From Vicugna vicugna (taxonomy: Eukaryota): 64,000 bases of DNA. The notes beneath the pieces are model-generated. The model worked only from the letters and a program-made list of their open reading frames with translations, searched no databases and had not been told where the DNA came from. The first letter of the stretch is position 1; the number at the start of each line of letters is the position of its first letter. A program made the position numbers and the translations under genes. The stretch spans positions 97,038 to 161,037 of the forward strand of contig MU058233.1 of NCBI GenBank assembly GCA_013265495.1, in the 5' to 3' direction. Shown piece after piece: positions 41,253-60,481 of this stretch.

Positions 41253-60481
<19,229 letters not shown>

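Follow-up and report, generated by a model that had tools for sequence, protein, structure and literature searches.

In the available part of Kim et al. (2022, PMC9516821), false gene losses affect about 26-60% of the genes of earlier assemblies and are biased towards GC-rich sequence, their commonest forms being missing exons and Ns. Losses of ULK1 itself have been engineered: in the accessible text of PMC3330011, Ulk1-null mice are viable and the gene is redundant with Ulk2. The portion at hand of a preprint that includes C-terminal mutants describes the MIT domains as binding ATG13 and FIP200; in the human protein, Leu967 and Phe997 contact FIP200 (bioRxiv 10.1101/2024.08.02.606296).

Here we analyse a window of 64,000 nucleotides from Vicugna vicugna (the whole stretch of DNA under study; assembly GCA_013265495.1, contig MU058233.1, positions 97,038 to 161,037), in which ULK1 lacks the acceptor of intron 24 and 23 coding nucleotides of exon 25. 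The missing stretch is probably an assembly error and not a feature of the animal. This weighting, like those given below for a private allele and for a common or homozygous one, is a judgement and not a computed value.

Results

A single lesion in an otherwise ordinary ULK1 gene

The gene is an ordinary ULK1, of the Atg1/ULK family. Its named matches are ULK1, its exons chain in one frame, and it has the domains of a ULK1 orthologue, an N-terminal kinase and a C-terminal tandem MIT (Pfam on the 1055-aa alpaca protein XP_072808995.1: Pkinase 17-278, MIT1 880-965, MIT2 977-1049), with residues 901-908 of MIT1 missing in the window. The exon blocks of alpaca ULK1 map to the same window exons, and 1045 of the 1046 compared residues are identical to XP_072808995.1, in agreement with the identity proposed in a preliminary description of this DNA; Old World camel ULK1 differs from the window at 5-6 residues, which marks the window as South American camelid DNA. 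The same description held the other 27 exons to be intact, and the exon model bears this out: 26 of the 27 introns are GT-AG, each of at least 79 nt, intron 24 being the sole exception. The single difference from XP_072808995.1 lies at codon 673, which is CAC (His) at 57440-57442 and Gln in all eight camelid proteins. The motif could be located in 134 related proteins; since 23 of them, primates included, have His at this position, Gln673His is a tolerated change.

Upstream, the window contains a ten-exon membrane-type matrix metalloproteinase gene (1301-18635, + strand), a GT-AG chain in one open frame with 577 codons after a gap of 685 Ns (615-1299) that truncates the start of its first exon. 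The 300 bases that follow the gap are 76% GC and contain 38 CpG. Its features suggest that this gene is MMP17.

Table 1. Features of the ULK1 locus, in window coordinates.
Feature	Position	Strand	Basis or remark
ULK1 coding span, ATG to TGA, 28 exons	41253..60481	+	exon model mapped from camelid proteins
Exon 24, intact, ending in phase 2	58668..58840	+	57 aa, 100% identical to alpaca and camel ULK1
5' remnant of intron 24, 22 nt, normal donor, no acceptor	58841..58862	+	sequence, exon model
Deletion junction; acceptor and 23 coding nt absent	58862..58863	+	size of the loss estimated from other animals
Surviving part of exon 25, 96 nt, normal donor	58863..58958	+	31/31 residues identical to camelid proteins
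TGA of the 908-aa frame, on retention of the remnant	58866..58868	+	384 nt upstream of the last exon junction
Pyrimidine-rich cryptic acceptor in exon 25, CAG ending at 58900	58881..58900	+	score 11.6
TGA of the 1133-aa frame after exon 25 skipping, in the last exon	60832..60834	+	exon model; AATAAA at 62010 downstream

The break

The break lies where it had been placed before: exon 24, which also has matches in the PDB structures 8SQZ and 8SOI (ULK1 chains of the solved domain), ends at 58840, its donor GTGGGT starts with the GT at 58841, and after 22 nt ending in CA, not AG, the sequence is in mid-exon 25 (Table 1). The exon model likewise confirms that 23 exonic nucleotides are absent, a loss that follows Gly900; the frame of exon 25 restarts at 58863, with its first whole codon at 58865. 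The read-through product has 908 aa and, beyond the break, alpaca XP_031526009.1 has 155 residues, in line with the roughly 155 that the preliminary description had given as lost from a protein of about 908 aa; the residues that remain in the window are all identical to alpaca (147 of 147). Its argument from phase is also correct, as the eight AG dinucleotides in the remnant of exon 25 are all in phase 0 and the donor is in phase 2.

The size of the loss can be approached through other animals, in which intron 24 measures 69-87 nt in eight distinct in-frame read-through proteins and 92 nt in a reverse-frame one (P0250); this approach detects only introns that are open in some frame, and the camelid intron 24 is itself not among them. 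Because these introns span 69-92 nt, 22 nt are left in the window and 23 coding nucleotides are lost, we estimate that about 70-93 bp are missing, including the acceptor.

Could the 22 nt be a working GT-CA micro-intron in a normal gene? Its donor is intact, but removing the 22 nt cannot restore 23 coding nucleotides that are physically absent from the sequence, and the frame stays shifted. In addition, 22 nt is below the minimum of 37 nt in the available text of PMC4463651. The sequence refutes this reading, to which we give practically no credence.

The junction contains no N, the only run of Ns in the window being the one upstream. Its GC content is 71-73%, against 65% just downstream and 65-70% in the neighbouring exons and introns. 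A motif scan found no G-quadruplex motif overlapping it, and in the surviving sequence no repeat at the break would explain a collapse, five families of short direct repeats lying nearby. Microhomology can be judged only against an intact camelid intron 24.

The junction in camelids and other animals

All eight camelid ULK1 proteins checked, two of alpaca and the others forms of wild Bactrian, Bactrian and dromedary camels, are intact at the junction at the protein level; both alpaca proteins are RefSeq models without a low-quality label, and none of the eight need derive from the same species or animal as the window. Neither reading of the junction is carried by any of the 265 proteins compared. 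Among the 120 matches listed out of 361, 97 have at least 800 aa, and 93 of these read straight across the junction. The other four are three in-frame intron-retention models (two of pig, one of vaquita) and a Weddell seal model (P0037, on a 540-kb contig) that enters intron 24 and then jumps to exon 27. A jaguar model (P0107) breaks one exon later than intron 24. We infer that the seal and jaguar breaks reflect assembly faults. Breaks of this kind between exons 24 and 27 hint at a region that is often badly assembled or annotated.

An old or camelid-wide loss of ULK1 can be rejected, because there is no second lesion, the 147 residues past the break are unchanged, the eight camelid proteins are intact and the junction is found in 0 of 265 proteins. 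The locus shows neither the several lesions nor the relaxed divergence of a unitary pseudogene (a single substitution over 1046 residues, with the 147 past the break unchanged), and the relatives compared, alpaca and three species of camel, lack the lesion.

Three further searches, for camelid genomic read-throughs or the junction product, were blank: 0 of 53 forward-frame proteins (44-142 aa), 0 of 6 reverse-frame proteins (110-350 aa) and 0 of 33 representative proteins. These are weak blanks: none of the three sets contains a camelid genomic read-through, so they neither show nor exclude further carriers. Among the sequencing runs listed, 20 of 24 contain the stretch in part (14 at 0.82-0.93 of its 255 words, none with every word); only about 3 words are lost to a junction, and a SNP takes about as many, so word shares cannot place the missing words. 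The RNA shares of 0.27-0.28 are near the exonic 0.24, and we gave them no weight. Paper listings yielded no natural loss of ULK1 in camelids or mammals, and ULK1 goes unmentioned in the main text of PMC7331169.

Assembly error or private allele

If the missing stretch is an assembly error, as we favour and as the preliminary description also inclined to think, a short GC-rich sequence with thin read cover would have been closed wrongly, by a contig join or by gap filling without Ns, and the animal would most likely make a normal ULK1 of 1055 aa. A number of observations argue for this explanation. First, there is one lesion only, in a gene with a single residue difference from alpaca and no signs of decay. 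Second, the window is a gapped draft whose 685 Ns adjoin a CpG-rich exon of 76% GC. Third, all eight camelid proteins are intact, as would be expected of a false loss, and none of the 265 proteins compared carries the junction. Fourth, the junction is richer in GC than the sequence just downstream, the seal and jaguar models break at or near the same intron, and the false losses of PMC9516821 are biased to such GC-rich sequence. Against it stand the junction without N, where missing exons and Ns are the commonest false losses of PMC9516821, the lack of a G-quadruplex motif or explanatory repeat there, a GC content only slightly above that of its neighbours, and a local accuracy that looks high, the other 27 exons of ULK1 being clean and the upstream metalloproteinase gene forming one open frame. 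Contig junctions also normally need read support.

Some of the same observations suit a second explanation, a real and recent deletion allele in the sequenced animal, probably heterozygous and picked by the assembler over the intact haplotype. Such an allele would act mostly as a null: retention of the remnant, whose stop lies 384 nt ahead of the last junction, or use of a cryptic acceptor at 58900 is predicted to trigger decay, and the intact allele together with ULK2 would make up for the loss. The clean junction and the accurate flanking genes are consistent with it, and lethality does not exclude it, since Ulk1-null mice are viable, with Ulk2 redundant, in the available text of PMC3330011. 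However, the site is GC-rich in a gapped draft, and the junction was not sighted a second time, although the three blank searches have little power on this point for want of camelid genomic read-throughs. A private allele seems to us possible but clearly the less probable of the two.

Predicted transcripts and proteins of a real deletion

Were the deletion real, several transcripts could follow. The preliminary description had predicted one outcome, retention of the 22-nt remnant with an early stop and nonsense-mediated decay. This much stands as a prediction: the 908-aa frame ends at the TGA of Table 1, and decay is expected under the usual 50-nt rule because the stop lies well upstream of the last junction. 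It would not be the single outcome, as exon 25 skipping and in-frame forms can also be drawn.

Splicing from the normal donor to the cryptic acceptor at 58900 would remove an intron of 60 nt and is predicted to lead to a stop at codon 917, and to decay. On a crude matrix built from 26 introns of the same gene, this acceptor scores 11.6, compared with 1.9-12.9 for the true acceptors, a level reached by 0.5% of 1089 intronic decoy AGs; the normal donor of intron 24 scores 6.4, the true donors ranging from -2.0 to 12.5. In intact alleles, too, the 58900 acceptor could serve as a minor alternative 3' splice site.

Exon 25 skipping shifts the frame, as had been claimed, and the new frame reads on as far as 60832, within the last exon. 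The predicted product has 1133 aa, of which 233 C-terminal residues are new, and it is expected to escape decay because its stop is in the last exon. This frame crosses exons 26-28 without a stop and continues into the 3' UTR for about 350 nt (60426-60834). C-terminal extensions of similar sequence occur in the models of some other mammals (P0113).

In-frame rescue may be possible from phase-0 donors at 58800, 58803, 58845 and 58854, whose scores are -0.8, -1.5, 1.9 and 5.5 (the normal donor has 6.4); with introns of at least 50 nt, it would give proteins of 1001-1036 aa, and the rescue that the strong 58900 acceptor allows is predicted to be weak. The best donor of this set, 58854, gives an intron of 47 nt. 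Since the accessible part of PMC4463651 reports introns of 37-65 nt in humans, the introns of the 58900 acceptor and of in-frame rescue are possible, and one of 22 nt is not. As for the protein, a real allele would be predicted to lose most of MIT1 and all of MIT2; the human FIP200 contacts Leu967 and Phe997 fall beyond the break when their positions are checked on the sequence.

These products bear on a third explanation, that one lineage of South American camelids has the deletion in homozygous form or at high frequency and that protein is still made. It would be either the 1133-aa skip kinase or an in-frame form of about 1036 aa without part of MIT1, and in both cases a kinase no longer coupled to ATG13 and FIP200. 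The last-exon stop of the skip product, the strong cryptic acceptor at 58900, the presence of in-frame donor-acceptor pairs and the short human introns of PMC4463651, as far as its available text goes, are in its favour, and no llama, guanaco or vicuna protein is among the matches listed. Yet the junction is intact in both RefSeq models of alpaca and in the three camel species, the sequence past the break shows no relaxation relative to alpaca, and the in-frame donors are either weak (1.9, -0.8, -1.5) or leave the 47-nt intron of 58854. We regard this explanation as very unlikely.

Discussion

Our analysis suggests that the broken ULK1 of this window is most likely not biological and would at most be a rare null allele, in a gene that tolerates its loss. 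What it means depends on the explanation. As an assembly error, it serves only as a warning, since annotation and screens for gene loss that use this assembly would score ULK1 as broken by mistake. A real allele of a single animal would join the loss-of-function variants that are tolerated; breeders might find some use for it, and it would be the large-animal equivalent of the viable Ulk1-null mouse, in which mitochondrial clearance in reticulocytes is delayed according to the available text of PMC3330011. Even so, it would be modest, as mice tolerate the loss of ULK1. Wide interest would attach only to an allele that is common or homozygous and has a stable product: a decay-resistant ULK1 of 1133 aa whose intact kinase is separated from ATG13 and FIP200 by 233 new residues, if common and true, would be a natural mammalian test of the roles of the protein outside the autophagy-initiation complex.

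Three known systems frame these possibilities. Engineered losses, in the accessible parts of the work on the Ulk1-null mouse (PMC3330011) and on C-terminal mutants (bioRxiv 10.1101/2024.08.02.606296), would resemble the locus if the deletion is real, as the allele would then lose most of MIT1 and all of MIT2, and they differ from it in not being natural. The false gene losses of Kim et al. (2022, PMC9516821), as far as the available text describes them, share with it a lone lesion, a conserved gene rich in GC, a gapped assembly and relatives that are intact in better assemblies; they differ in that the window has no N at its junction. Alpaca ULK1 (XP_072808995.1, XP_031526009.1) matches the window in its exon blocks and in all but one of the residues compared, but has Gln673 in place of His, a spliceable intron 24 and the residues 901-908 that the window lacks.
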